Numbered from the stretch's first letter, positions 2,167-21,564 are shown. The stretch: DNA of 64,000 nt from Candidatus Altiarchaeota archaeon (GCA_043813075.1 JBDRLL010000003.1:125811-189810); one strand, 5' to 3'. The notes: generated by a model not told the origin, from the letters alone. Numbers and translations are program-made.

Positions 2167-3339
2167 ATGAGGGAGGTTATGGAGGCGTCTCACGCCATTT
2201 CGGATGCTGTTAAGGCGATTGAGCCGGATGTTATAGCCGCCTACCCGATTACGCCGCAGACTCACATAGTAGAGAGGATTTCCGAGTTCGTGGCTAACGG
2301 TGAGATAAACTCTGAGTACATTAGGGTTGAGTCAGAGTTCAGCGCCATATCAGCTTGTTTGGGCGCTTCCGCCGCAGGCTCCAGGGCGTATACTTCAACA
2401 TCATCCCAGGGCCTCGCCTTGATGCATGAGATCCTGTTCATAGTCTCGGGAATGAGGCTTCCAGTCTGTATGTCGGTTGTGAACAGGGCTTTGAGCGCGC
2501 CAATCAACATCTGGAACGACCATTCTGACACTATGGCAGAGAGGGATACCGGCTGGATACAGTTGTATGTGGAGACCGCTCAGGAAGGTTATGACATGAC
2601 GATAATGCAGCATAAGATAAGCGAGGACAAGAGGGTGCTTCTACCGTCAATGGTCTGCATGGACGGCTTCACCCTATCACACGTTTATGAGCCTGCTGAG
2701 ATACACTCCAAAGAGGAGGTGGACTCGTTCCTGCCTAAATTCAAGCCTGTTCACGCCGTATTAGACCCTAAGGAGCCGTTGACGCAGGGGCCGATAGGAT
2801 TCCCAACCCACTACATGGAGTTCAAGAAGGATTTAGAGGATGCCATGAGGAACTCGCTCCCAGTGATAGGGGAGGTTATGAGGGACTACAGCAAGAAGTT
2901 CAAGTGCGGCATCAAGTATTCAAGGCCAGAGAAGTATTATCACGTCGAAGAGTACAAGACTGATGACGCTGACGTGACCCTTGTTGCAATGGGTTCCGTG
3001 TGCGGCACGATAAAGGAGGTCATTGACCAGCTGAGGGAGAAGGGTGTGAAGGCTGGGTTGCTAAAGATAATAACCTACAGGCCGTTCCCCGCAAAGCTCA
3101 TAGTCGAGAAGCTGAAGGGCGCCGGCAAGGTGGCTGTTGTTGAAAAGGCCATGTCACCAGGATTCGGCGGGCCATTATACGGCGAAATCGCAGCAACCAT
3201 GTATGATTCGGATGAGAAGCCTGAGTTGAGGAACTTCATAGTTGGCTTGGGAGGGCGTGACGTCCGCCTGGATCATGTTGAGAGGATAATAGACATGACC
3301 CTCAAGGGAGAGGGGAAGAGGGAGGAGTGGATGTTCTAA
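2167..3339 (+). CDS. porA: Pyruvate:ferredoxin oxidoreductase, alpha subunit
   Basis: AISDAVKAIEPDVIAAYPITPQT...SEFSAISACLGASAAGSRAYTSTSSQGL is the characteristic POR alpha N-terminus. Confidence 0.9.
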   Translation: MREVMEASHAISDAVKAIEPDVIAAYPITPQTHIVERISEFVANGEINSEYIRVESEFSAISACLGASAAGSRAYTSTSSQGLALMHEILFIVSGMRLPVCMSVVNRALSAPINIWNDHSDTMAERDTGWIQLYVETAQEGYDMTIMQHKISEDKRVLLPSMVCMDGFTLSHVYEPAEIHSKEEVDSFLPKFKPVHAVLDPKEPLTQGPIGFPTHYMEFKKDLEDAMRNSLPVIGEVMRDYSKKFKCGIKYSRPEKYYHVEEYKTDDADVTLVAMGSVCGTIKEVIDQLREKGVKAGLLKIITYRPFPAKLIVEKLKGAGKVAVVEKAMSPGFGGPLYGEIAATMYDSDEKPELRNFIVGLGGRDVRLDHVERIIDMTLKGEGKREEWMF

Positions 3340-3340
3340 G

Positions 3341-4255
3341 ATGGCGATACTTGGTTTAGATGAGAAGGAGTATTTCGCGAAAGGCCATAGGGCGTGCGCC
3401 GGCTGCGGTGAAGCCCTGGCTTTAAGGCTCATAATGAAGGCTGCAGGCCCGAATACGGTCGTCACACAGTGCACTGGATGCATGGAGGTCGTTTCCACCC
3501 CGTATCCTGAGACTGCATGGGAGGTTCCATGGGTTCACGGCGCCTTCGAGAACAATGCGTCAATAGCGTCCGGTGTGGAGCGTGCGTTGAAGATGCAAGG
3601 CAAGGAAGACGTTAACGTCCTTGTTCTGGGCGGAGATGGTGGAACATACGACATCGGGTTCCGCGGGCTCTCAGGCGCATTTGAGAGGGGGCATAATATC
3701 ACTTACGTGTGCACCGACAACGAGGCCTACATGAACACTGGAATACAGAGGAGCGGTGCAACACCTTACGGTGGCTCCACCACCACTTCCCCTGCTGGAA
3801 AGAATACTATCGGAAAGGAAGAGTGGAAGAAGGACATAATCCATATAATGGCTGCGCATGGCTCGCCTTACGTGGCGACGGCTTCAGTGGGATACCATAC
3901 GGACCTGGTTAGGAAGATAAAGACTGCCCTCGAGACTAAGGGGCCGACTTTCGTGAACGTGTATTGTCCGTGCACTCCCGGCTGGAGGATCGATCCGTCC
4001 GCAACGATAAAGGTCGCTAAACTTGGTGTTGAGACTGGGGCTACCCCGCTCTTCGAGATAATCGGCGGCAAACACAAGGTGAACATGCCAAGAGACCCTG
4101 GCAAGCTGAAGCCTGTTGAAGAGTACTTGAAGCTCCAAGGCAGGTTCAGGCAGCTCTTCAAGCCAGAGGAGAAGAAGGAGGACCTCAAGTACATTGGAGA
4201 CAGGATACGGAAAAATCTTGAGACCCTTCTGGCTTACGAGGAGAAGGGCTTCTAA
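3341..4255 (+). CDS. porB: Pyruvate:ferredoxin oxidoreductase, beta subunit (TPP-binding)
   Basis: CAGCG Fe-S ligand region, TPP motif GGDGGTYDIGF...TDNEAYMNTG, and a start 1 nt after the porA stop. Confidence 0.9.
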   Translation: MAILGLDEKEYFAKGHRACAGCGEALALRLIMKAAGPNTVVTQCTGCMEVVSTPYPETAWEVPWVHGAFENNASIASGVERALKMQGKEDVNVLVLGGDGGTYDIGFRGLSGAFERGHNITYVCTDNEAYMNTGIQRSGATPYGGSTTTSPAGKNTIGKEEWKKDIIHIMAAHGSPYVATASVGYHTDLVRKIKTALETKGPTFVNVYCPCTPGWRIDPSATIKVAKLGVETGATPLFEIIGGKHKVNMPRDPGKLKPVEEYLKLQGRFRQLFKPEEKKEDLKYIGDRIRKNLETLLAYEEKGF

Positions 4256-4318: not shown

Positions 4319-6055
4319 ATGATTGGCAACAACAATCATGGGCGGAATTCTAGCGGAGCCGTAATCCTACCCAGCAGGGAAGAACTAGAGAAGGTTGGAC
4401 TGTTTTCCAGGATGAGGGAAAACAGGAAGAGGATAAGGACGGTTTTAGGGGATAAGGACGTAATGTACGTTTCATTCAGAATCGACGACAGGGCGCTTGA
4501 CGGAGTCTCCCTTGAGATAGATGAGTGGACTAAGGCCCTACACGGGATGTGCAAGAGCATCAGCTTCTTCTCAGGAGACACTAAGAACCCGGGATTCCTT
4601 GATGATAAGGACATGATCGAGCACCCGATATGCCATTTCACGAGGCCTGAGATACGGGGTATTACAGACGAGTGGTTTGAGAGGGATGATATAACCGGTG
4701 CGGAGGTTGAAGTGCTTACAGGATTTAGGAGTATAAGTGATGGCGCTTTCACTAGGCTGAAGCGTATTGGAAGCTATTTAGGGGCGGGCAGCCCAACTGA
4801 AGATGGCGTGCGCAAGCTCATCGGCGATGACGAGACAGGCAGTGAAGTGAGGAATCTTATGCGCGACACAACGGTTGGTGTAGAACAGGAAGACTTCATG
4901 CTGGGGGTGAAGAGGGCGACAGAGCTCGTGAAGCTCCTGGGCATAAAAAACCAGATTAAAGAGTATCTGCTAAAGGCAGCCAGGGAAAAGAAGACGGACG
5001 TCATGATAGTGGACAACGTGCTATGCTATCCAGGTAACATACCATTCTCTCTCGCAGTAGTTGAGGCAGCCAACCAGCTAAACAGGGATGGGGGGATGAT
5101 GGTTGTAAACCACAGCCACGACTTCTGGTGGGAGCAGGAGAGGTTCAACGCGAAAGGCCCTAACATGGAGACGCTGATGGAGTATCTCGCGACGGGGGTG
5201 GAAAACCAGAGTGTGGCTGTCATAAACACTCCTGCAAAGGAGGAGTTGGAGCGTAGGACTGGAGTAAAGGCTGTTGTGATGCCCAATGTCAGGGACTTCG
5301 ACAATGTTGAGGAGACCAGCCGGGACACGGTCAGAGGCTTCAGGCAGCTGGTGCTTGAAAGCGAGGACGACATAATGCTCCTACTGCCGGTTCGACCGGT
5401 AAGGAGGAAGAACCTTAGGCTATCCGTAGAGCTCGCTGATGAACTGCAGAAGAGGCTTGAAGAGCGGGGGGACAAGAGGAAGGTGAGGCTTGTGGTAACA
5501 CACCCGCCTGACGATGAAGGCGACGGATACCTCCGTAGCGTACAAGAGTATGGATTGCGGAGGGGGATACTGGTTATTGACGCCAGTAGATTAGTGAGGA
5601 AGACGAAGACCGGAATGGATGATGGAGTGGAAGTATCCGATATCCTAACATCAAATGGGAAGTCCGGTAGGATAGGGCCTGAAGCCGTGAGGGTCATGCG
5701 TGATGGAATAACGCTGGACGAAGCATATGACGCGTGCGACATGGTAGTATACAGTACTTCAAGGGAGGGTTATGGGAACGTGATACCAGAGGCTGTTAGA
5801 AAACGGAAACCATTAGCAAGCTCTGATTACCGTATAGCTAAAACAGACATACTACCTAATGGCTTTGACTTCATTATAATCCAGGGGGATGGTTTGAAGC
5901 CGTCTTCCGAAAAGATGGTTGATATGATATGCGACCCTGAGAGGAGGAGCGAGAATGTTGAGGGAAACTTCAGCAGGGGGAGACTGCACATGTCGTACGA
6001 CACCTTCTACGAGAGATTCCTCAGCCTAGTCGACAGCCTACAGACCGCGACATAA
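4319..6055 (+). CDS. GT-B fold (GT4-like) glycosyltransferase-like protein with extra N-terminal/inserted regions
   Basis: C-terminal E-x7-E-like motif STSREGYGNVIPEA and an N-lobe-like MYVSFRIDDRALDGVS. The start is ambiguous (ATG 4319, or 4463 at MYVSF). The family is not recognised. Confidence 0.45.
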   Translation: MIGNNNHGRNSSGAVILPSREELEKVGLFSRMRENRKRIRTVLGDKDVMYVSFRIDDRALDGVSLEIDEWTKALHGMCKSISFFSGDTKNPGFLDDKDMIEHPICHFTRPEIRGITDEWFERDDITGAEVEVLTGFRSISDGAFTRLKRIGSYLGAGSPTEDGVRKLIGDDETGSEVRNLMRDTTVGVEQEDFMLGVKRATELVKLLGIKNQIKEYLLKAAREKKTDVMIVDNVLCYPGNIPFSLAVVEAANQLNRDGGMMVVNHSHDFWWEQERFNAKGPNMETLMEYLATGVENQSVAVINTPAKEELERRTGVKAVVMPNVRDFDNVEETSRDTVRGFRQLVLESEDDIMLLLPVRPVRRKNLRLSVELADELQKRLEERGDKRKVRLVVTHPPDDEGDGYLRSVQEYGLRRGILVIDASRLVRKTKTGMDDGVEVSDILTSNGKSGRIGPEAVRVMRDGITLDEAYDACDMVVYSTSREGYGNVIPEAVRKRKPLASSDYRIAKTDILPNGFDFIIIQGDGLKPSSEKMVDMICDPERRSENVEGNFSRGRLHMSYDTFYERFLSLVDSLQTAT

Positions 6056-6102
6056 GCATGATTGATGGTGAAAACAGGGGGGCAGTCATTCGCGTGCACA
6101 CG

Positions 6103-6108
6103 TTTTTT
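6103..6108 (+). terminator. Oligo-T tract (T6) downstream of the 4319-6055 gene
   Basis: cacgttttttaag lies 48 nt after the stop. Archaeal terminators are typically oligo-T. Confidence 0.35.
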
Positions 6109-6195
6109 AAGCACTAGAATCTCATATTATACACGATTTAAACAAAATAAGTCAACCTTGAATTAGATTTTTTAAGGTGACGTGAGGGGTTAAAC

Positions 6196-7326
6196 ATGGA
6201 TTCGATAGTTCAAAACGCGATAAACAAGGCCGTGTCAGGCAGCGGAGGGACGCCTTCCAGGCCAAACGTTTCTGACTCGGACGAAGAGTTAAAGAGGATT
6301 GTTGAAGGTATAAAGACCTCCATAAAGGTTGTTGGATGTGGGGGAGCTGGGTCAAACACGATAGACCGTCTGATGGAGATGGGTGTTGAAGGCGGTGAGG
6401 TAATAGCCGTAAACACTGACGCACTTCATCTATTGTACTGTAAGGCCCCGATGAAGGTTCTTATCGGAACGAGCATTACCGGCGGGGTTGGTGCTGGAAA
6501 CGATCCGGAGATAGGGGAACAGTGCGCTGAAAGCGATGTGGACAAGATTTCAACGTCTCTTCAGGGCTCTGACATGATATTCATAACGTGCGGGCTTGGC
6601 GGCGGTACTGGAACAGGTAGCGCGCCGGTCGTTGCTGAAGTTGCTGAAGACCTGCAGGCGCTGACAATAGCCATAGTGACTCTGCCATTCAGTGTTGAAG
6701 GTAGGGTGAGGGCGACTAACGCGCTGCGGGGGCTTAAGAAGCTCAGGAAATACGCTGACACAGTAATCGTGATACCGAACGACAGGCTTCTGGACATAGC
6801 ACCTAACCTTCCGTTGAACGCCGCATTCAAGGTAGCTGACGAACTGCTTGCGAACGGCGTTAAGGGCATCACAGAGATGGTCACCAAGCCGGGGTTAGTG
6901 AACTTGGACTTCGCTGACGTGCGAGCCATAATGAAGGACGGTGGCACGGCGATGATAGGCATGGGCGCGTCGTCAAAAGACACTTCCATGGACGCCAGAT
7001 CAAGGGAGTCCGTAGAGAAGGCTTTGACGTCACCGTTGCTTGACACAGAGATAAACAATGCCACTGGCGCGTTGATAAACATTATTGGAAGCAGGGACAT
7101 GACGCTAGAGGAGGCTGAGGAGATTGTGAGGATCGTTTCCGAGAGGATAAGCCCTGACGCAGAGATAATCTGGGGTGCGCAGATAGACGAGACACTTGAC
7201 AGGAACGTCATAAAGACGCTTCTAATACTCTCAGGGGTCAGTGTCCCAGGATACGAGGAAGCCCTAGAGGAGAAGGTAGAGAGGGGCGGCGACGAACACA
7301 TGGACATAGGCTTAAAACACCTCTAA
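6196..7326 (+). CDS. ftsZ: Cell division GTPase FtsZ
   Basis: [13 protein letters not shown] and the tubulin signature [16 protein letters not shown]. Confidence 0.95.
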
Positions 7327-12909: not shown

Positions 12910-13728
12910 ATGGAAGTCAGGATCGACCTGCGGAAGAGCATACCAGAGAACGCTGAGGCATACTATAATACGGCGAAGAAGTCCAAGCGTAAGATTAACG
13001 GTCTTGTGAAAGCGATTGAGGAGACTAAAGGCCGGCTGGAGGGGATGCCTGAAGCAGATTCGGAGCCCACCCAGCAGGTGATAAGGAAGAAGAAAAAGAA
13101 GAGGTGGTTCGAGTCCTATCGTTGGTTCACTTCAAGCGATGGCTTCCTTGTGGTGGGGGGGCGTGACGCGGGAAGCAACGAGTCGCTGATAAAGAAGCAT
13201 CTGGAAGACAGGGACCTGGTGTTCCACGCGGAGATTCAGGGCGCCCCATTCTTCATAGTGAAAAACCCGGATGGGAAGGAGATCCCGGAGAATACGATAC
13301 TGGAGGCTGCTGAGGCTGCTGGAGCATACAGCAAGGCGTGGGGTAGGGGCATGGGCTCATGCAGCGTATACTACGTGAACCCTGACCAGGTCTCAAAGAC
13401 GCCGCCCGCAGGTGAATACCTGCCTAAAGGGGCTTTCATGATATACGGGAGGAAGAACAAGGTACATGACGTTGAACTGAAGGTTGCCATAGGATTCATC
13501 GTTGACGAGGGCGTGGAGACTGTGGGCGGCCCGGTCTCTTCAGTGGAATCCAAGACAGGATACTATGCGGTAGTCGGTGTTGGAGACGTCAAATCCAGGA
13601 AGCTTTCAGAGGATGTTGTGAAGAGCGTCTTGAGAAAGACCCCTGCGGAAGCAGGGGCTTTGATAAAGAAAACGGGCCTCGATGAAGTCCAGAAGTGGAT
13701 TCCGTCAGGGAAGGGCAGGCTCCTCTAG
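12910..13728 (+). CDS. NFACT-R (DUF814) domain protein, a short Rqc2/FbpA-related protein
   Basis: RWFESYRWFTSSDGFLVVGGRDAGSNESLIKKHLEDRDLVFHAEIQGAPF is the DUF814 signature. It is only 272 aa and shows no NFACT-N domain. Confidence 0.7.
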   Translation: MEVRIDLRKSIPENAEAYYNTAKKSKRKINGLVKAIEETKGRLEGMPEADSEPTQQVIRKKKKKRWFESYRWFTSSDGFLVVGGRDAGSNESLIKKHLEDRDLVFHAEIQGAPFFIVKNPDGKEIPENTILEAAEAAGAYSKAWGRGMGSCSVYYVNPDQVSKTPPAGEYLPKGAFMIYGRKNKVHDVELKVAIGFIVDEGVETVGGPVSSVESKTGYYAVVGVGDVKSRKLSEDVVKSVLRKTPAEAGALIKKTGLDEVQKWIPSGKGRLL

Positions 13729-14771
13729 CGCCTCCTGCTTTTCACGAAAGACTTCGGGTCGCGGAGTATGATGTAGGATGCTGTCAACACTAATAGACCT
13801 GCAGTCAACGAATCCTTTAGCTGAAATCCGAGATGCCAGTGCATCAGGGCTATTGTTGAAGACGATAATGCGGGCGGGATTAGCTTGTACACCCCACTTA
13901 TCTCCGACATCTTGGAGAACAGGAATGCTAGGGGCAGCATGAGCAGTAGGAGTGTCGACGATGCGAGGAGCACGGTTATAGTGAACCATAGGAGCGCCTT
14001 CACACACCAGGATATGTTGGATTCCACTCCCGCGAGATTCCAAGGCTCCTCAGAGAAGAAGAGCATAAGCCATAGGATTATTAGGGTGAACAAAGTGCTT
14101 ATCGGATGAGTGTACAGGTTTTTGAAGGAGCCCTTGAAGTCTATGCTGCTGGGCGCGGCCCCGACCGCAAAACACATCTGCAGGTAGAGCATTATCCATG
14201 ATAATATACTCCCATAGTCCATGCTGAGGAAGGATGATGTCATGATGGATGACGTGTGGATGAATGCGCCGATGAAGTCCTCTGGAACGTTAAGCTGCAC
14301 CGAGTTGACAACGTTAACCAGGTCTCCGCCCTGGAGATAGTTTAGCATTATCATGAGGGAGCCGCACCCAAAGAAGGGGGCGAAGGCTATGACGAACTCG
14401 CGCAACACAATCCACTTGTCCAATGGAGTCCTATAGTTAACGTAGCCCAGCATCCCTGTCTTGGGGTTTGGCTTGAACAAGGACATCCCGGTTATGTAAC
14501 ATCCTGAGAACAGGGCCGCGAAAAAGTGGGATAGCTCGTGGAGTATTGTGCCTGGGGCCATGAAAACTATGAAGGGGTAGGAGCCGAACCTCATCCGCTT
14601 TAGGACGTAGTATTCTATGAGGTCGCTTAACAGCACTTGCACTGCGAAGAGTAGGGGTATGAATGACGCGTATGAGCGGATGTAGTAGCCGTCAAGATAC
14701 GCCCATAGACAGTAGGAGGATGCGAACAATAGTATGAGGGTGACAACCCTGTTGGACAGACCGAAAACCAT
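13725..14771 (-). CDS. Polytopic membrane protein with an HExxH motif (putative membrane metalloprotease)
   Basis: ILHELSHFFAALFSG lies within a multi-TM protein. The family is not recognised. Confidence 0.5.
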   Translation of the reverse strand: MVFGLSNRVVTLILLFASSYCLWAYLDGYYIRSYASFIPLLFAVQVLLSDLIEYYVLKRMRFGSYPFIVFMAPGTILHELSHFFAALFSGCYITGMSLFKPNPKTGMLGYVNYRTPLDKWIVLREFVIAFAPFFGCGSLMIMLNYLQGGDLVNVVNSVQLNVPEDFIGAFIHTSSIMTSSFLSMDYGSILSWIMLYLQMCFAVGAAPSSIDFKGSFKNLYTHPISTLFTLIILWLMLFFSEEPWNLAGVESNISWCVKALLWFTITVLLASSTLLLLMLPLAFLFSKMSEISGVYKLIPPALSSSTIALMHWHLGFQLKDSLTAGLLVLTASYIILRDPKSFVKSRRR

Positions 14772-14831: not shown

Positions 14832-15908
14832 ATGGACTTGAGGGAGAAGATAAAGGCTATTGAGGAGGAGATAGAGAAGACCCCATACAACAAGGCCACC
14901 CAGCACCACATAGGGAAGCTTAAGGCGAAGCTTGCTAAGATGAGGGAGAAGGAGTTCAAGGCCTCTTCAAAGAAAGGTAGTGGCGTCGGCTTCGGGGTGA
15001 GGAAGACCGGGCACGCTACCGCAGTCCTTATAGGCCTCCCTTCAGTGGGCAAGTCCACCCTGTTGAACAAGCTGACTAACGCCGAGTCGGAGGTTGCAGG
15101 CTATGACTTCACCACACTGGATGTGATACCCGGGATGCTACAGCACGAGAGCCTTAACGTGCAGATACTCGACCTGCCGGGGATAATAACGGGGGCGGCC
15201 ATAGGGAAGGGGAGGGGTAGGGAAGTCCTGTCGATGGTGAGGAACGCTGACCTGGTGATAATAATGCTGGACGCTGGTAGGACGAGCGTTTTGCATGAGA
15301 TAAAAGACGAGTTGTATGACATAGGAGTCCGGCTGGACTCGAAGCCTCCTGAAGTATCGGTTAAAAAGAAGATAAGAGGCGGGGTCTCGCTGACTTCGAC
15401 CGTTAAGCTCAGGCGGATAGATGTTGAGGAAGTTAGGGCTGTGCTGAACGAGTATGGCGTACATAACGCTGACGTGGTGATAAGGGAGGACATGACAATC
15501 GACCAGTTCATAGATGCCGTGGCAGGGAACAGGGTTTACGTCCCGTCCCTAGTGCTCGTCAACAAGATAGACAAGGGAGGGGTGAAGAACCTGGATTTCG
15601 AGCATCTGCCCATATCAGCGGAGAAGGAGGTCGGAATCGAGGGGGTTAAGGACGCTATCGTTTCAAAGATAGATGTCATAAGGGTTTTCCTGAAGCCGCA
15701 GGGAGGGGAGGCTGACATGAACGATCCGCTGATACTGAAGAATGGATCTAGCATAAAAGACCTGTGCGAGAAACTCCACAAAGACTTCCTCAAAGGCTTC
15801 AGATATGCCCTGATATGGGGGGAATCCGCGAAACACCCCGGCCAACACGTGGGCTTGAAGCACGTATTAAAAGATAAGGACGTAGTAACAATAATAAAAA
15901 GTGGTTGA
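14832..15908 (+). CDS. DRG/Obg-family GTPase with C-terminal TGS domain
   Basis: G1 GLPSVGKSTLLNKLT, G3 DLPG, G4 NKID, and a C-terminal TGS-like ..GSSIKDLCEKLHKDF... Confidence 0.9.
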   Translation: MDLREKIKAIEEEIEKTPYNKATQHHIGKLKAKLAKMREKEFKASSKKGSGVGFGVRKTGHATAVLIGLPSVGKSTLLNKLTNAESEVAGYDFTTLDVIPGMLQHESLNVQILDLPGIITGAAIGKGRGREVLSMVRNADLVIIMLDAGRTSVLHEIKDELYDIGVRLDSKPPEVSVKKKIRGGVSLTSTVKLRRIDVEEVRAVLNEYGVHNADVVIREDMTIDQFIDAVAGNRVYVPSLVLVNKIDKGGVKNLDFEHLPISAEKEVGIEGVKDAIVSKIDVIRVFLKPQGGEADMNDPLILKNGSSIKDLCEKLHKDFLKGFRYALIWGESAKHPGQHVGLKHVLKDKDVVTIIKSG

Positions 15909-15909
15909 A

Positions 15910-16593
15910 ATGAATTACTGGAAGACTATACTATTGATGGCCTTTACGGCCCTGCTCAGCGGATGCATGTGCTGCGGCGGATTCGGCCCTGGAGGCGATG
16001 ATGGCTATGAAGACGTTGATGCCGGCAGCCAGTGCAGTCCGCCATACATGGTTTTCGGGAGCGGATGCTGTCTTGATGCTAATGTGAACAGCATCTGCGA
16101 CGATGATGAGATGACGACAACCCTCATGAAAGAGACGACGATAAAAACCCAGACAACCGTGCGCGTGGAAACGACAGCCAATGATGCCACGACGACAACC
16201 ATGATGGAGCCAGCGACAACAATTATGGAGGCGACAACCACGACCATCGCAGGCAAGACTCCAGTACAGTTATGCGTGGAGAAGGCAGGATACAAGTCAG
16301 ACACTCTAATATACGTGTACAGCAACAGGTGCGGTGTGACTGAGAAGACCAAACTAACAAACGACGGGTTTAGGAAAGGCAGGGAATACCAATACATCGA
16401 CATAGGCATACTAAGCGATCAGGAGAAGGAGGTCCTAGCATGCTTCTACGGCCCATACTACAAGGGCAACATGAAGTACTCCATGTGCCCCATGCTACTG
16501 TGCCCGACGACAGGGGCCCATGAAGCGCACACAGGTTATAGTTCCATAACAGTAATGGCCGCTAGGATGATTAGGGATTGCTTCGGTGAATAA
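15910..16593 (+). CDS. Secreted lipoprotein, paralog 1: lipobox, Cys/Asp loop, Thr-rich linker, glutaredoxin-fold-like domain
   Basis: Lipobox LLSGC, the loop CLDANVNSICDDDE, a T-rich tract, and a C-terminal domain alignable to the next two ORFs (CFYG...CP). Confidence 0.6.
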   Translation: MNYWKTILLMAFTALLSGCMCCGGFGPGGDDGYEDVDAGSQCSPPYMVFGSGCCLDANVNSICDDDEMTTTLMKETTIKTQTTVRVETTANDATTTTMMEPATTIMEATTTTIAGKTPVQLCVEKAGYKSDTLIYVYSNRCGVTEKTKLTNDGFRKGREYQYIDIGILSDQEKEVLACFYGPYYKGNMKYSMCPMLLCPTTGAHEAHTGYSSITVMAARMIRDCFGE

Positions 16594-17016
16594 ATGAGGC
16601 GGATGTTATTGTTGATGGCTTTGATAGCCCTCCTACAGCCGGCGGCAGGCGAAGAAGACATGATGTACGAGACCCTGACGGAAGCATGCGTCCAGAACGC
16701 GGGCTATAATCCAGGATACGTGGCCTACGTCTACAGGAACAGGTACAAGATGGGGGGCACAAAGCCGAAGATAATGGATGCCGGGAGGAAGACGGGTGTG
16801 GGAGTGCATTTCATAGAGACTGGAATACTGACAGAGGGGGAGGAGAGCCTACTAAGCTGCTTCTACGGCACGTATTCAGAAGAGAACAGGGAATACATGA
16901 AGTATCCGAGGATAATCTGCCTTAAAAACGGTGAAGTCAACAATATTAGGAGCGGCAGGCCGGTGACAGTGCAGGCCCGCGAGATGATGTACGAATGCAG
17001 GAGGAGTATGGGATGA
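16594..17016 (+). CDS. Secreted protein, paralog 2: signal peptide plus the same glutaredoxin-fold-like domain, no linker
   Basis: Signal peptide MRRMLLLMALIALLQPAAG. The domain ACVQNAGYNPGYVAYVYRNR...SCFYGTYSEE...YP aligns with paralog 1. The start abuts the previous stop. Confidence 0.6.
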   Translation: MRRMLLLMALIALLQPAAGEEDMMYETLTEACVQNAGYNPGYVAYVYRNRYKMGGTKPKIMDAGRKTGVGVHFIETGILTEGEESLLSCFYGTYSEENREYMKYPRIICLKNGEVNNIRSGRPVTVQAREMMYECRRSMG

Positions 17017-17585
17017 AGGCTATGATAATGAGTTTAACGGCATTGCTTGTCCTAAGCGGATGCCTGTGCAATATGGGGGCTGAAGACTGCCTTGACGCGG
17101 ACAGTAACGGTGTGTGCGACAATGAAGAGAAGGCGACTAGCACGACGGTAAAGACCACCAGCACGACAAACATGCCGACACTACCACCACTTCCCGCGGA
17201 CACCACAATAGAGACGATCACCACAACCCTAGGCCCTACAACCACCACATTATCTATGGCCGAGTGTGTGGGGCAGTATCAGGTACAGAGCAATGAGGTC
17301 ATATTCCTGTATACGACAAGCTGTTGCGCCAGCCTGCACAACACAGTCAACCAGCTGGGCTCATTGAAGTTCGAGAAGATGGAATTGACTGTCATAGATC
17401 CGAGGGAGAGGAATATTCTAGGGTGCCTTGGCATAACGGACGTGAAGGAAATATCGCTCGCACGATTGTACTGTCCGTTCAACAGTGAGAGCATGTACAT
17501 ACCAAAGGAAGAGTTCGCGGGCGCCAGGGACAGGATAAGGGATTTCACGCTGAAATGCAAGGAAGACTCGCTTAAAGATGCCTGA
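17013..17585 (+). CDS. Secreted lipoprotein, paralog 3 (divergent)
   Basis: Lipobox VLSGC, the loop DCLDADSNGVCDNEE, a Thr-rich linker, and the domain ECVGQY...IFLYTTSCC...GCLG...YCP. It shares an ATGA overlap with paralog 2, and aggagg lies upstream. Confidence 0.6.
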   Translation: MKAMIMSLTALLVLSGCLCNMGAEDCLDADSNGVCDNEEKATSTTVKTTSTTNMPTLPPLPADTTIETITTTLGPTTTTLSMAECVGQYQVQSNEVIFLYTTSCCASLHNTVNQLGSLKFEKMELTVIDPRERNILGCLGITDVKEISLARLYCPFNSESMYIPKEEFAGARDRIRDFTLKCKEDSLKDA

Positions 17586-18753
17586 AGTTGTTGAATTATG
17601 CCTTAACGGCAAGAAGGTTTATATCGTAGGTACCGCACACGTCTCCGACGATAGCGTCAGGCTGGTGGAGGAGACTGTCAGGGGGGTGAAACCGGACGCC
17701 GTCGCCGTTGAACTCTGCGAGCAGCGCTTCAAGGCATTGAAGAACGAGCGCGAATGGGATGAGACGGAGATAACAGAGGTCATAAAATCCGGGAGAACAT
17801 ACCTTTTCCTAGTCCAGATACTGATGGCCAACTTCCAGAGGCAGATAGGAGACAAGATAGGTGTCAAACCAGGGTCGGAGATGCTGAAGGCCATTGAGAT
17901 AGCGGAGGAGAACAAGTCGGAGATAGTCCTCATAGACAGGGACATAACCATAACGCTGAAACGGGCCATAGGCTTGACGACGCTAAGGGAAAAGCTGAAA
18001 CTCCTCTATGGATTCTTCAATGACGTGCTAAGCGAGGGGGAGATTGACGAAGAGCTCGTGGAGAAGCTGAAGGAGAAGGACATGCTCTCAGAGCTGATGG
18101 AAGAGCTTGCCGTGGAGACGCCGTCAATAAAGAGGGTGCTGGTTGACGAGAGGGATGAGTACATGGCGTTAAGCATAGCGTCCATCGAAGCCGAGAAGAT
18201 TGTCGTGGTCGTCGGCGCCGGACACGTTGACGGGCTTAGGAGGAGGCTTGAAGAACTTGAGGGATACGTTATAGTAAGGTACAAGCAGGGTATGGGGGAG
18301 CTCATGAAAGTCGAGAAAAAGAGGAGTGTGGTGGGATATGCAGGCTACGCCATACCCCTACTATTCCTCGTGATAATAGGTTGGGGTTTTATGAATCACG
18401 GAAGCGCTATGACTTTAACTATGCTGAAGGAATGGTTCCTGATAAACGGGACGCTATCCGCGCTCGGAGCAGCCCTTGCACTAGCACACCCCCTAACCGT
18501 GTTGACTGCATTCATCGCAGCACCATTCACGTCATTAAACCCCACCATAGCGGCGGGATGGGTGGCGAGCATAGTTGAATTCAAGATGAGGAAGCCAAGG
18601 GTCAAGGACTTCAAGAACCTGCTGAAGCTGAATAGCATGGGAGACTACTGGAGGAACAGGGTAACGCGGATACTCCTGGTGATAGTATTCGCGAACATAG
18701 GGTCCAGCATAGGCACATTCATAGCCCTACCATACCTGGCAAGCCTTATTTAA
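17578..18753 (+). CDS. TraB/PrgY (Tiki-superfamily) protein with C-terminal TM domain
   Basis: YIVGTAHVSDDSV, AVAVELC and VVVGAGHVDGL motifs, plus about four C-terminal TM helices. It overlaps the previous gene by 8 nt. Confidence 0.8.
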   Translation: MPEVVELCLNGKKVYIVGTAHVSDDSVRLVEETVRGVKPDAVAVELCEQRFKALKNEREWDETEITEVIKSGRTYLFLVQILMANFQRQIGDKIGVKPGSEMLKAIEIAEENKSEIVLIDRDITITLKRAIGLTTLREKLKLLYGFFNDVLSEGEIDEELVEKLKEKDMLSELMEELAVETPSIKRVLVDERDEYMALSIASIEAEKIVVVVGAGHVDGLRRRLEELEGYVIVRYKQGMGELMKVEKKRSVVGYAGYAIPLLFLVIIGWGFMNHGSAMTLTMLKEWFLINGTLSALGAALALAHPLTVLTAFIAAPFTSLNPTIAAGWVASIVEFKMRKPRVKDFKNLLKLNSMGDYWRNRVTRILLVIVFANIGSSIGTFIALPYLASLI

Positions 18754-18788: not shown

Positions 18789-19622
18789 ATGAGACTATAC
18801 TGTGTTGTGGGGCATCCGGTCTCGCACAGCATGTCGCCAGCAATGCACAACGACGCGTTCAAGAAGCTGGGCATGAAATTCAGGTACGAGACCGCTGACA
18901 TAGGACCGGAAAGGCTCAGGGAGTTCATGACCACTGCAAGGTTCACTTACGCTGGAATGAACGTCACAATACCCCATAAAGTCGCGGTCATCGAATACCT
19001 GGACGAGCTGAGCAGGGAGGCTGAGTTGATTGGCGCAGTCAACACAGTCAAGTGCGGAGACAAGATGGTGGGCTACAACACCGATGGAATAGGCTGCGTA
19101 CGCGCGCTATGCGAGGAAGGTGTTGAAGTGAAGGGCAAGAGCGTGCTGATAGTAGGCTCCGGGGGAGCGGGAAGGGCGATATCATTCCAACTAGCGCTTG
19201 AGGGAGCCTGCGTGACGCTGTCAGACCGCCTGATGGATAAGGCTGAGGAGCTTTCAAACGAGATAAAGACGAAGGTCGGTTGTGATGTGGGGGTTGCTGA
19301 CGCCGATGCCTGCTCGTTAGGGGAGGCTCTTAAAGACGCTGACATCCTGATAAACTCGACCCCAGTAGGAATGTCGCCAAACGTGTCCGAGTCGGTGATA
19401 GAAGCCGCACTGCTGCCCAACGACATCGTCGTAATGGACCTGGTCTACAACCCTCTTGAGACGAAACTGCTTAAGATAGCGAGGGAGAGGGGCTGCAAGA
19501 CAGTGGAGGGAGTCGGCATGCTAGTCCACCAGGGAGCCGAGTCATTCAGGATATGGCTGGACGTGGAGCCTCCAGTAGACGTCATGAGGAAGGCTGTCCT
19601 CAAAGGCCTTAATCAAGTCTAG
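18789..19622 (+). CDS. aroE: Shikimate dehydrogenase
   Basis: GHPVSHSMSPAMHN, NVTIPHK, GYNTDG and GSGGAGRA. Confidence 0.9.
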   Translation: MRLYCVVGHPVSHSMSPAMHNDAFKKLGMKFRYETADIGPERLREFMTTARFTYAGMNVTIPHKVAVIEYLDELSREAELIGAVNTVKCGDKMVGYNTDGIGCVRALCEEGVEVKGKSVLIVGSGGAGRAISFQLALEGACVTLSDRLMDKAEELSNEIKTKVGCDVGVADADACSLGEALKDADILINSTPVGMSPNVSESVIEAALLPNDIVVMDLVYNPLETKLLKIARERGCKTVEGVGMLVHQGAESFRIWLDVEPPVDVMRKAVLKGLNQV

Positions 19623-20515
19623 AGGGATCCCACCAGCTTACGGTAGTTTGAAGCTAGCCCCGCTTTGACCAAACCATCCATTTCCATGATACCTGCCAGA
19701 TCATCTGGCGTAACAATTCCTCCGGATATGTGAGACTCTGCCATCGACTTGATTTTCTCCCAGTACACTGCGTCCATGCGAACCAGACTGTCAGTGAACA
19801 AATCATCTAAACGTGATGCTATGGCGTTAAGGAATGATAGTGGCATTGAACCCAGACTCTCCTTCTCTTCCATGCCAGTGAGCGAGAGGAAGTTAACCGC
19901 CGTACCAGTAAGGCAGATGAACCCCCTGCAGACCCCGAGTTTAAGACCGTTCTCGTATAGAATGCACCGGCCGTCGTCATCAAGGAAAAAACACGCCCTA
20001 GCACTGCCGCCGCACCATAGCGGAGACTTCTCGCTCAGGAGGGGCAGATTGGATAGTAGTTCGCGCGATATTGGACTTGCAGGGTTAAGCGGGGTGTGGT
20101 ATACGTAGTCGACACCATCCTCGGTTGACACATAGTGGGATTGACTCTTATCGAGCCTAATTTTTAGGTCATCATCTGCCTCATCCAGTCTGGAGCGGAG
20201 GAGAGGTGGATAACATGACTCCAGTATAAACTCGTTGAGAATAGGGGTCATCACCTTGTCGACCACAACACCTTTGTCATTGTTGAAGAAGCAGCAGGCC
20301 TTGCACTCCCGGATACTGCATTCCGGGTGATGGACTATCTTCTCGATAAAACGGGTGATGGAATCGTGAACAACCAGCATATAGTCCCGCACTTTCCGCG
20401 CGGAGTCTTCATGGGGATCACGCTGTAAATCCCCTCTGCGCGAGTCGAACCATGATGCAAGAGCGCGCCTGGATTCAACCCACTGCCTGTATCTGCCGAC
20501 CCTTACTTCCCGCAT
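19619..20515 (-). CDS. Cys-rich protein with YkgJ/UPF0153-like metal-binding motifs
   Basis: CSIRECKACCFF and CFFLDDDGRCILYENGLKLGVCRGFIC. It overlaps the larC 3' end by 13 nt. Confidence 0.55.
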   Translation of the reverse strand: MREVRVGRYRQWVESRRALASWFDSRRGDLQRDPHEDSARKVRDYMLVVHDSITRFIEKIVHHPECSIRECKACCFFNNDKGVVVDKVMTPILNEFILESCYPPLLRSRLDEADDDLKIRLDKSQSHYVSTEDGVDYVYHTPLNPASPISRELLSNLPLLSEKSPLWCGGSARACFFLDDDGRCILYENGLKLGVCRGFICLTGTAVNFLSLTGMEEKESLGSMPLSFLNAIASRLDDLFTDSLVRMDAVYWEKIKSMAESHISGGIVTPDDLAGIMEMDGLVKAGLASNYRKLVGSL

Positions 20516-21564
20516 TTCACCAAGCCCTTAGCCATTCTAAAAGACATGCCATGCTTCAAGGCAAGCCGCCTAACGTCATCGTATTCAGGCTTACACCCCA
20601 CGCCAGAGTACTTCACGCCAACCTCCTCCAGGCAACCGTCCACATTAACCGAAACACTACCCATCATGCGACGAGCCTCGAAACGCCCTAAGACAGGCTG
20701 CCTACGAACGCCCAGAGTCCCAGTCTCCTCCATGATTATGCTTGAATGCTCTTCAGGCAGGTCTGACAGGACTCTTATCAAGTAGCCGAGCCTCCCCTTC
20801 TTCATCAGGCACGGTATTACATGGACGTCAATGGCGCCTGCACCCATCAGCGACTCGATCATGAAGGAGACGTGCTCTGGAGTGCAGTCGTCGACATTAG
20901 TCTCCAGGATGAACTTATCCCGAGACTCCACAGCCCTCAGAACGTTAGGATACTCCAGCATCATTGAGCCTGCGCCAACACCGGATCTGCCTTCCGGAAT
21001 GGTGCATTCATAGCGTGAGGCGATGACTGAGAGTATGGCCGCGCCGGTCGGCGTTGTTATCTCCCTGCCTGAAGTGTGCCTGACAGGCATGCCAGAAGAC
21101 CGGATTATGTGCATTGTGGCGGGAGCTATATAACCCACCGACACGGGAGTTGCAATAACCCCAGAGTCTAATGCACCCAATTCCTCCAACGCCAGTGATG
21201 TTGAGACAGCATCCACAACACAGTCAACAGCCTCGTGCAGATGCACTTTCTTGAGTGGGACTTTATGGGCCTTAGACTCCGCCCTAGCAAGCTGCTTCAA
21301 TATCTCCAACGAAATCTTCTCGCATTTACGGGAGAGTCGGAGTGACTTCACAACATTCACCAAGTCGACATACTCCCTCGACTTGGGAGCGAATTCCACG
21401 TCAAACTTCAATGCCCTCACGCCACGACGCCTGACCTTCCTGAAACCCACCACAGCAACCCTGCGGAGGACTTTCCGTATCCGCTCAGCATCAGCACCCA
21501 AATCAACGAGCGCTGCAACCACCATGTCTCCGCTAGCACCAGCAGAGCAGTCGAGGTAAATCAT
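20503..21564 (-). CDS. larC: LarC-family nickel insertion protein (DUF111)
   Basis: The N-terminus MIYLDCSAGASGDMVVAALVDLGAD is the LarC/UPF0272 signature. Confidence 0.85.
   Translation of the reverse strand: MIYLDCSAGASGDMVVAALVDLGADAERIRKVLRRVAVVGFRKVRRRGVRALKFDVEFAPKSREYVDLVNVVKSLRLSRKCEKISLEILKQLARAESKAHKVPLKKVHLHEAVDCVVDAVSTSLALEELGALDSGVIATPVSVGYIAPATMHIIRSSGMPVRHTSGREITTPTGAAILSVIASRYECTIPEGRSGVGAGSMMLEYPNVLRAVESRDKFILETNVDDCTPEHVSFMIESLMGAGAIDVHVIPCLMKKGRLGYLIRVLSDLPEEHSSIIMEETGTLGVRRQPVLGRFEARRMMGSVSVNVDGCLEEVGVKYSGVGCKPEYDDVRRLALKHGMSFRMAKGLVKCGK

Follow-up and report, generated by a model that had tools for sequence, protein, structure and literature searches.

Three adjacent genes, here called ORF1, ORF2 and ORF3 (ORF, open reading frame), were studied in a 64,000-nt stretch of DNA from a Candidatus Altiarchaeota archaeon (GCA_043813075.1, JBDRLL010000003.1:125811-189810), referred to below as the window. 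They lie between the genes for a DRG-type GTPase and a TraB-family membrane protein (Table 1). We consider it rather probable that the three are tandem paralogues of an exported surface-protein family, centred on the Altiarchaeota and without a prior model, in which a thioredoxin (Trx)-fold head, most likely non-catalytic, is carried on a lipid-anchored Cys knot and a Thr-rich stalk. The kinds of protein involved are known, namely a head of the Trx-fold superfamily, a lipobox lipoprotein and a TraB-family neighbour, and what is new is a variant within them: a family without a Pfam or NCBIfam model that sets a CxxC-free, probably disulfide-locked Trx-fold head on a reusable archaeal anchor cassette. 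The family helps in annotating the surface proteomes of Altiarchaeota and would be a case of a redox fold turned structural head.

The C-terminal domains of ORF1 and ORF2 are 33% identical over 110 aa (E 6e-18). ORF3 resembles ORF1 in pairwise comparison chiefly in the N-terminal anchor region, its head gave nothing detectable in pairwise comparison with ORF2, and ORF3 alone reached a non-significant 5% probability against a profile of ORF1 and ORF2. With orthologues from a related genome added on both sides, ORF3 joined at the profile level (hhalign, 93% probability, E 2.8e-7), and four core Cys line up in all five sequences. An earlier note on this DNA, made from the sequence, had proposed three paralogous proteins sharing a C-terminal domain of about 110 aa; this holds, with ORF3 as a divergent subtype placed by profile-level evidence.

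No Pfam family (matches listed at E<=1 to 10) and no NCBIfam family (matches listed at E<=0.1) was found for ORF1 to ORF3, Pfam searches with family members returned nothing relevant, and a sequence-profile search of the PDB with the family gave chance matches alone (E>0.4). In a word-indexed protein search the ORF1 head retrieved nothing and ORF3 only itself. Exhaustive searching with HMMER, over 1.84 billion representatives, returned 45 proteins at E<=1e-3, including 32 at E<=1e-10. Those carrying names are all archaeal and belong to Candidatus Altiarchaeota or are labelled 'uncultured archaeon'. The head consensus is YxCVxxAGYxPDxxIYxYSxxCG...GVxxxxIDIGxL...ExxxLECFYGxYSxxNxxFxxCPxLLCPKTG...QMxGFAxxC. 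Sequences and a feature scan show a full architecture that is common across the family, consisting of a lipobox signal peptide, a Cys knot, a Thr/Ser-rich linker of ~50-130 residues and the head; variants have a signal peptide alone (like ORF2), a lipobox alone, or added Cys-rich C-terminal domains. In one distant member, P0042 (306 aa), an N-terminal zinc-ribbon and a transmembrane anchor replace the lipobox, and the knot and stalk are kept.

Identity to the proteins of L026, a JGI contig with a three-paralogue layout identical to that of the window, is 54% for ORF1, 34% for ORF2 and 43% for ORF3, versus 76% for DRG, 79% for TraB and 80% for the shikimate dehydrogenase AroE. The heads diverge much faster than their neighbours, which fits surface exposure. 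Copy number (1-3) would be altered by local duplication, and ORF2 is a copy with a signal peptide and a head alone.

The anchor part was read from the translated sequences. The lipobox pattern [LVI][ASTVI][GAS]C occurs in ORF1 and ORF3, in both as LSGC (Cys19 and Cys17, respectively), and nowhere in ORF2, whose plain signal-peptide-like N-terminus (MRRMLLLMALIALLQPAAG) is followed by the head only. In ORF1 the signal peptide precedes a Cys knot, which the AlphaFold2 model renders with a beta-hairpin at residues 46-55 (block predicted local distance difference test score, pLDDT, 89-92), and then a linker with a block pLDDT of 52-60, predicted to be disordered and with a sub-threshold Pfam match to Mucin. 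In ORF3 the knot, with DADSNGVCDNEE, is truncated, and it is followed by a Thr-rich stalk and a divergent head. Thr and Ser together make up 25-33% of the two linkers. These observations agree with the earlier description of lipoboxes in the first and third proteins and a simple signal peptide in the second, and the Cys-bounded acidic loops (DANVNSICDDDE and DADSNGVCDNEE) and Thr-rich linkers ascribed to ORF1 and ORF3 are likewise present in the sequences. The likeness of the loops to Excalibur-type Ca2+ loops is approximate: they are acidic and Cys-bounded, but neither Excalibur (PF05901) nor EF-hand was among the Pfam matches listed at E<=1, and the spacing is not DxDxDGxxCE. The family knot consensus, CxxPY[IM]xxGxxCCLDxDxNGxCDxxE, contains the loop D-x-[DN]-x-[DN]-[GS]-x-C-D-x-x-E, which has the 12-residue spacing of the EF-hand type. 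An acidic, Cys-bounded 12-residue loop is what the family shares with EF-hand-like, Excalibur, thrombospondin-type-3 and dockerin-type Ca2+ loops.

With archaeal lipobox lipoproteins (Haloferax volcanii; AliA/AliB pathway, PMC12462473) the family shares a signal peptide that ends in [LVI][ASTVI][GAS]C. The family, for which lipidation is predicted only, differs from these in a conserved CC at +3 and +4 after the lipobox Cys: the motif SGC-x-CC-GG (window 15964-15981 in ORF1) is found in nearly all DRG/TraB-linked members, and ORF3 has just one extra Cys (LSGCLCN, 17061-17072). The cassette of lipobox, knot and Thr-rich stalk was also found on P0054 (370 aa, ABIH11_05990, in the same metagenome-assembled genome but outside the window) and on P0055, in both cases with the knot CxxPYxxxxxxCCLDxNxNxxCDxxE and with unrelated, Cys-rich heads. 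Because it is carried by other heads, the cassette is a general surface-display device of these archaea rather than one specific to this operon, and the sequences suggest a modular surface-display system in Altiarchaeota. In such a system ORF1 and ORF3 would be exported by a Sec-type signal peptide with a lipobox, and lipid anchoring would occur at the conserved Cys. The knot would be a small disulfide module, its EF-hand-like loop probably a Ca2+ site, and the Thr-rich stalk is probably O-glycosylated and disordered.

The conserved DxDxNGxCDxxE loop also brings up extracellular Ca2+ binding or buffering, or an action together with a Ca2+ transporter, with the head taking part. Two signal-peptide-only members each precede an Na+/Ca2+-exchanger gene (L028 and L042), and calsequestrin, a Trx-fold Ca2+ buffer, is at rank 34 of the Foldseek list for the ORF3 head. 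The loop, however, sits in the reusable cassette and not in the head, and it occurs on unrelated heads too, whereas the members adjoining the exchanger gene (Na_Ca_ex) have no loop; a third signal-peptide-only locus (L043, member P0025) has no obvious exchanger gene. The ORF1 head has ~14 K/R versus 12 D/E and is not acidic, so that a calsequestrin-like acidic Ca2+ buffer was rejected. A role of the family in Ca2+ handling is considered very improbable.

The fold of the head was examined with AlphaFold2, using a 38-sequence family alignment as input for ORF1 and, in a separate model of the ORF3 head, a shallower set of close relatives. Block pLDDT in the ORF1 model is 94-98 at residues 121-220, with flanking blocks at 81 and 90. 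The elements follow the order a0-b1-a1-b2-a2-(short helix)-b3-b4-a3 (a, helix; b, strand), with helices assigned by DSSP at 118-125, 145-156, 170-180 and 213-225 and strands at 133-138, 160-164, 195-197 and 204-206. The ORF3 head was modelled with a pLDDT of 93.5 and a predicted template modelling score of 0.86 and has the same element order, and the core b1-a1-b2-a2-b3-b4-a3 of the Trx-fold superfamily, which has a mixed four-stranded sheet, is present in both models by DSSP. In Foldseek searches against the PDB, all 50 matches listed for ORF1 have the Trx fold (glutaredoxins, thioredoxins, a GST, YbbN and others), the best being poplar glutaredoxin (Grx) C1 (E 1.5e-2, probability 0.92). The ORF3 head matched TrxP, ArsD, Grx, the b' domain of PDILT, the a0 domain of P5, and Wind, interleaved with prolyl-tRNA synthetases. 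The structure prediction called for in the earlier note agrees with the Grx/Trx fold proposed there, both in topology and in best matches that are nearly all Grx or Trx. A Trx/Grx-like fold of the shared head is well supported by model topology and by the consistency of the matches, without a statistically significant match. No Trx or Grx family was among the listed Pfam and NCBIfam matches of ORF1 to ORF3, and hhalign against Escherichia coli Grx3 and NrdH (approximate query sequences) gave 9-10% probability, with a fold-compatible but non-significant register for NrdH and a register 2 residues off for Grx3.

The predicted core is the same as in glutaredoxins, NrdH, the redox-inactive b' domain of protein disulfide isomerase (PDI), ERp29/Wind and ArsD, with an N-terminal helix added in the family; the best Foldseek matches of the two models include Grx C1, Grx2, Trx, TrxP, the PDILT b' domain and ArsD. 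As in that superfamily, the head has a Cys in the b1-a1 loop at the CxxC site and, in ORF1 and ORF2, a Pro before b3. Unlike Trx and Grx, it has neither a CxxC motif nor a sequence-profile match, is predicted to be exported and stalk-mounted, and has four extra near-invariant Cys and a Cys pair that would bridge the active-site loop and the cis-Pro loop.

Cys positions were read from a hidden Markov model alignment of 50 family sequences. Four positions are essentially invariant: C1 in a0, C3 at the end of a2, C5 following b3 and C6 at the end of a3. C2 lies in the b1-a1 loop at the place of the first CxxC cysteine, and C4 directly precedes the Pro at the cis-Pro position before b3. Both C2 and C4 are present in 33 sequences and neither in 10; three have C2 only (the ORF3 type) and one has C4 only, an alignment artefact (Fisher p = 5.6e-7, uncorrected for phylogeny). 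Joint loss occurred in at least 2 separate cases, namely ORF2, where the equivalents of C141 and C193 of ORF1 are Y and Y and whose orthologue P0003 retains both Cys, and the signal-peptide-only clade. The cis-Pro position is Pro in ORF1 (C193-P194) and ORF2 (Y-P), as expected from the C/Y-P turn earlier assigned to all three proteins, but ORF3 and its orthologues have Ala there. No CxxC or CxxS active-site motif is present in ORF1 to ORF3, which read NRCGVT, NRYKMG and TSCCAS at the site (family consensus xxCGxx), and a true CQGC was found in the family only in P0042.

The cis-Pro loop of Trx folds lies packed on the active-site loop, which makes a C2-C4 disulfide geometrically natural. Since the pair can be lost from an otherwise conserved domain, it is read as structural: C2-C4 (C141-C193 in ORF1) is probably a structural disulfide, judging from the co-variation and the fold, and such a pair would explain the 'degenerate CxxC' motifs of the three proteins. 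The four near-invariant Cys and the co-varying pair, which would tie the residue preceding the cis-Pro to the b1-a1 loop, would lock the fold. Most likely the head is non-catalytic, a stable domain for binding or scaffolding, like the redox-inactive PDI b' or the ERp29 type. As a functional statement, the earlier term 'redox-fold heads' does not stand, given the family-wide absence of CxxC and the co-variation and joint disappearance of C2 and C4, in ORF2 among others.

We judged it unlikely that the heads are extracytoplasmic thiol-disulfide oxidoreductases of the DsbA, TlpA or Etrx kind working with an atypical pair (C141-C193 in ORF1, the CC dyad in ORF3). A Trx fold with a Cys where the first CxxC cysteine sits speaks for that function, as do the CC kept by the ORF3 type and the CQGC kept by P0042 at this position, the rank of Etrx1, a pneumococcal surface lipoprotein thioredoxin (12 in the ORF1 Foldseek list), and the best Foldseek matches of the ORF3 head, which are Bacteroides TrxP. 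However, CxxC is missing in ORF1, ORF2 and at least 40 family members, C2 and C4 are jointly dispensable in 10 members including ORF2 with the domain otherwise conserved, the ORF3 orthologue in L001 reads FRSHAS at the site, without any Cys, and the block holds no redox partner gene. Bacterial surface Trx-like lipoproteins (Etrx1/2, TlpA, ResA, BdbD) also present a lipid-anchored or membrane-tethered extracytoplasmic Trx-fold head, but they have a functional CxxC and known redox partners (CcdA, MsrAB), whereas the present family is archaeal, lacks CxxC and adds a Cys knot and a Thr-rich stalk. The family probably descended from a redox-active ancestor, some members may still be redox-active, and P0042 may represent the ancestral redox-active state.

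Several points weigh against a lipid-anchored, non-catalytic head. The lipobox and export calls come from a pattern scan of the sequence alone, and the disulfide pairing is deduced from covariation and fold geometry. The Foldseek matches have best E values of 1.5e-2 and 4.6e-2, probabilities of 0.8-0.93 and template modelling scores of 0.38-0.54, and none reaches E<=1e-3. ORF3-type heads retain a vicinal CC dyad at the CxxC site, and the distant P0042 has CQGC at the active-site position. The 'binding head' is a reading by default.

The genomic setting was compared in two scans, one of a genome collection for TraB, which gave 25 loci, and one of metagenomes with a family profile from a 7-sequence alignment, which returned nine loci. 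The order DRG, 1-3 family members, TraB, aroE recurs in 10 further distinct loci. L001, the closest of the 25 genome TraB loci (TraB 79% identity), keeps DRG, an ORF1 homologue, an ORF3 homologue, TraB and aroE; it has no ORF2, and two unrelated genes (164 and 351 aa; 4638-6196) lie between the ORF1 and ORF3 homologues. In the same locus DRG is split into two ORFs (2800-3909), through a frameshift or an assembly error. A family gene stands right after DRG and right before TraB in 7 of the 9 metagenome loci, L032 being the same contig as L027. In L035 DRG and a family member are followed by the contig end, and in L036 neither DRG nor TraB is visible. The metagenome loci have 1-2 family copies each, junctions of -8 to +11 nt with a larger gap before aroE, and 49-66% (DRG) and 51-62% (TraB) identity to the window. 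In 10 other loci, too, a family member comes directly after DRG, and aroE after TraB is kept in L001, L026, L031, L033, L034 and L037. A polytopic membrane protein with an HExxH motif, encoded divergently upstream of DRG in the window, has orthologues (40-66% identity) in the same place in five loci (L026, L001, L033, L031 and L029). The 348-aa window protein, whose gene belongs to the conserved synteny block together with DRG, the family, TraB and aroE, had no Pfam or PDB match; the L031 orthologue gave sub-threshold matches to Peptidase_M50B (E 0.0017) and M50, and the protein may be a divergent intramembrane metalloprotease.

The expectation that the family co-occurs with TraB in other genomes was borne out by the 10 further loci, and the position next to TraB, real and conserved, is inherited as part of one synteny block. 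A dedicated module with TraB, as first suggested, was not upheld: the block mixes in housekeeping genes, other subfamilies lie elsewhere, and 24 TraB loci have no family member. The family is coupled to DRG as tightly as to TraB. In L002, from a second Altiarchaeota genome, the DRG and TraB neighbours are separated by a different membrane-protein gene on the opposite strand, so the DRG-TraB neighbourhood exists without the family too. None of the 24 other genome TraB loci showed a family member. The subfamily of P0013 and P0021 sits before the exchanger genes mentioned above, away from TraB; P0034 is flanked by a Band_7 gene and a zinc-ribbon gene; and P0014, on a short contig, has neither DRG nor TraB beside it. 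The association with TraB cannot alone show function because it counts as one evolutionary event; a functional link between the family and TraB is possible. P0013 (L028 314-1787) and P0021 (L042 502-1120) lack C2 and C4, and each is directly followed by a PF01699 exchanger gene, the two exchangers having near-identical N-termini.

The TraB protein matched PF01963 (120.7 bits versus a cut-off of 26.8, E 1.3e-34) and TIGR00261 (385.7 bits versus 178.35, E 2.1e-115, profile positions 2-377 of 380). Its translation contains IVGTAHVS, AVAVELC and VVGAGHVDG, the GTxH, Glu and GxGH motifs of the Tiki superfamily, and the earlier assignment to TraB/PrgY from the motifs GTAHV, E and GAGHV was confirmed by reading and by both models. 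Hydrophobic segments at ~249-273, 293-335 and 362-387 lie C-terminal to the motif domain. A signal peptide is absent, KKR precedes the first transmembrane segment, and the loop at 336-364 is rich in K/R; the positive-inside rule, together with the missing signal peptide, makes a cytoplasmic N-terminal domain probable. The motifs are shared with enterococcal PrgY and TraB, vertebrate Tiki and TRABD, and the C-terminal membrane segments with PrgY and TRABD. Tiki, in contrast, is glycosylphosphatidylinositol-anchored and extracellular. We know of no archaeal TraB member with a known substrate and of no prokaryotic one with a defined substrate. The N-terminus of TRABD faces the cytoplasm, and metalloprotease activity is putative even for most characterised TraB/Tiki members (PMC12329661); the Altiarchaeota TraB is likewise a putative metalloprotease, from its motifs.

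Wnt ligands are lipid-modified, and the protease Eep belongs to M50. Tiki acts on Wnt ligands by trimming their N-terminus (PMC12329661), and Eep is a metalloprotease localised to the membrane (PMC7117660). The pheromones neutralised by enterococcal PrgY and TraB consist of the final 7-8 residues of lipoprotein signal peptides (PMC7117660). Hong et al. (Nat Commun 2025, PMC12462473) ranked archaeal clusters of orthologous genes (arCOGs) by co-occurrence with predicted lipoproteins, which are prevalent in Euryarchaeota and DPANN. The top 25 included only two uncharacterised membrane proteins, arCOG02177, which proved to be AliA (characterised together with its relative AliB), and arCOG02142, a membrane metalloprotease of the Tiki superfamily co-occurring with archaeal lipoproteins; according to these authors, the signal peptidase for archaeal lipoproteins has yet to be found (PMC12462473). 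The window TraB would be arCOG02142-like, a likeness taken from the shared family description alone.

This background makes TraB a candidate lipoprotein-processing protease, either a signal peptidase II analogue or a signal-peptide hydrolase, with ORF1 and ORF3 as co-translated substrates. The TraB gene overlaps a lipobox gene in the window and overlaps or lies 1-4 nt from one in 9 other distinct loci. The published co-occurrence and the missing signal peptidase, the action of PrgY/TraB on signal-peptide fragments, the trimming of Wnt by Tiki, the lnt gene found two genes upstream in deltaproteobacterial TraB loci and the conserved HExxH membrane protein with M50-like hints next door all point the same way. 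Yet the adjacency belongs to one synteny block that includes DRG and aroE, a single event; the archaeal loci L002-L015 and L024 have no lipobox gene closer than 2.5 kb to TraB; ORF2, in the same run, has no lipobox; and the lipobox subfamilies of P0014 and P0034 are not near TraB. The probably cytoplasmic N-terminal domain, as in TRABD (PMC12329661), also speaks against it, and we regard such processing of ORF1 and ORF3 as improbable. A broader proposal, which we hold to be similarly improbable, is that the archaeal TraB/Tiki protein is the missing lipoprotein-maturation protease, acting in lipobox cleavage or in a signal-peptide destruction ancestral to PrgY/TraB pheromone shutdown, with the operon of DRG, lipoproteins and TraB coupling the enzyme to its substrates and the HExxH protein being Eep-like.

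Gene context ties an archaeal TraB/Tiki protein to lipobox proteins, beside the published arCOG02142 co-occurrence, and adds one clue to the open question of archaeal lipoprotein biogenesis; with this context resting on a single synteny block, it is a lead for archaeal lipoprotein maturation and not a result. An independent adjacency of TraB and a lipoprotein gene was sought among the 25 genome loci; none was found in archaea outside the clade, and the hits in Deltaproteobacteria turned out to be lnt. The order in those Deltaproteobacteria/Thermodesulfobacteriota genomes is corC, lnt (apolipoprotein N-acyltransferase; LNT_N and CN_hydrolase), prfB, TraB (L016 3368-8134; also L017, L018 and L022), which puts a gene of lipoprotein maturation two positions before TraB in bacteria.

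The tight packing of the four ORFs after DRG described earlier was reproduced from the ORF table and the raw sequence: a 1-nt gap between DRG and ORF1, no gap between ORF1 and ORF2 (0), an ATGA overlap between ORF2 and ORF3 (-4) and an 8-nt overlap between ORF3 and TraB (-8). A 35-nt gap separates TraB from aroE. In the NCBI annotation ORF3 (ABIH11_01155) has 196 aa and begins at the upstream ATG 16995. The only sizeable intergenic region of the DRG-TraB run lies 5' of DRG, and an A/T-rich TATA-like element, TTTAAATATTTTTA, was read there ~45-60 nt upstream of DRG; transcription of DRG through TraB as a single transcript from this element is plausible.

Table 1. Features of the run and its surroundings in the 64,000-nt window.
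Feature	Position	Strand	Description
Divergent upstream membrane protein	13725..14771	-	348 aa, polytopic, HELSH (HExxH) within a hydrophobic segment
DRG-type GTPase	14832..15908	+	358 aa, stop 15906-15908; Pfam MMR_HSR1, MMR_HSR1_Xtn, TGS; opens the tightly packed run
ORF1	15910..16593	+	227 aa, MFH1402857.1, annotated hypothetical protein; ATG 15910, TAA 16591-16593
ORF1 signal peptide (predicted)	15910..15966	+	Lipobox L-S-G-C (Cys19), then conserved xCCGG; sequence and lipobox scan
ORF1 Cys-knot module	16030..16110	+	CSPPYMVFGSGCCLDANVNSICDDDE; contains the 12-residue loop D-x-N-x-N-S-x-C-D-x-x-E; regular expression
ORF1 Thr-rich linker (stalk)	16111..16254	+	14 Thr in a 30-aa window
ORF1 thioredoxin-fold head (predicted)	16255..16590	+	Six Cys: C122, C141, C178, C193, C198, C224; AlphaFold2 and Foldseek
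ORF2	16594..17016	+	140 aa, MFH1402858.1, annotated hypothetical protein; ATG 16594, TGA 17014-17016
ORF3	17013..17585	+	190 aa; ATG 17013, stop 17583-17585
TraB	17578..18753	+	391 aa, MFH1402860.1, 'TraB/GumN family protein'; ATG 17578
aroE, shikimate dehydrogenase	18789..19622	+	277 aa; Pfam Shikimate_dh_N, SDH_C; downstream neighbour

An Rfam scan of the window gave no matches, and a search for additional copies of the family or the cassette elsewhere in the window found none. Downstream of aroE, the minus strand encodes a 298-aa protein with Cys motifs (19619-20515), which had no Pfam or NCBIfam match and is conserved at this place in L001 and L026. It is overlapped by 13 nt by a gene at 20503-21564, also on the minus strand, which is the counterpart of the Ni_insertion (LarC-like, PF01969) gene of L026.

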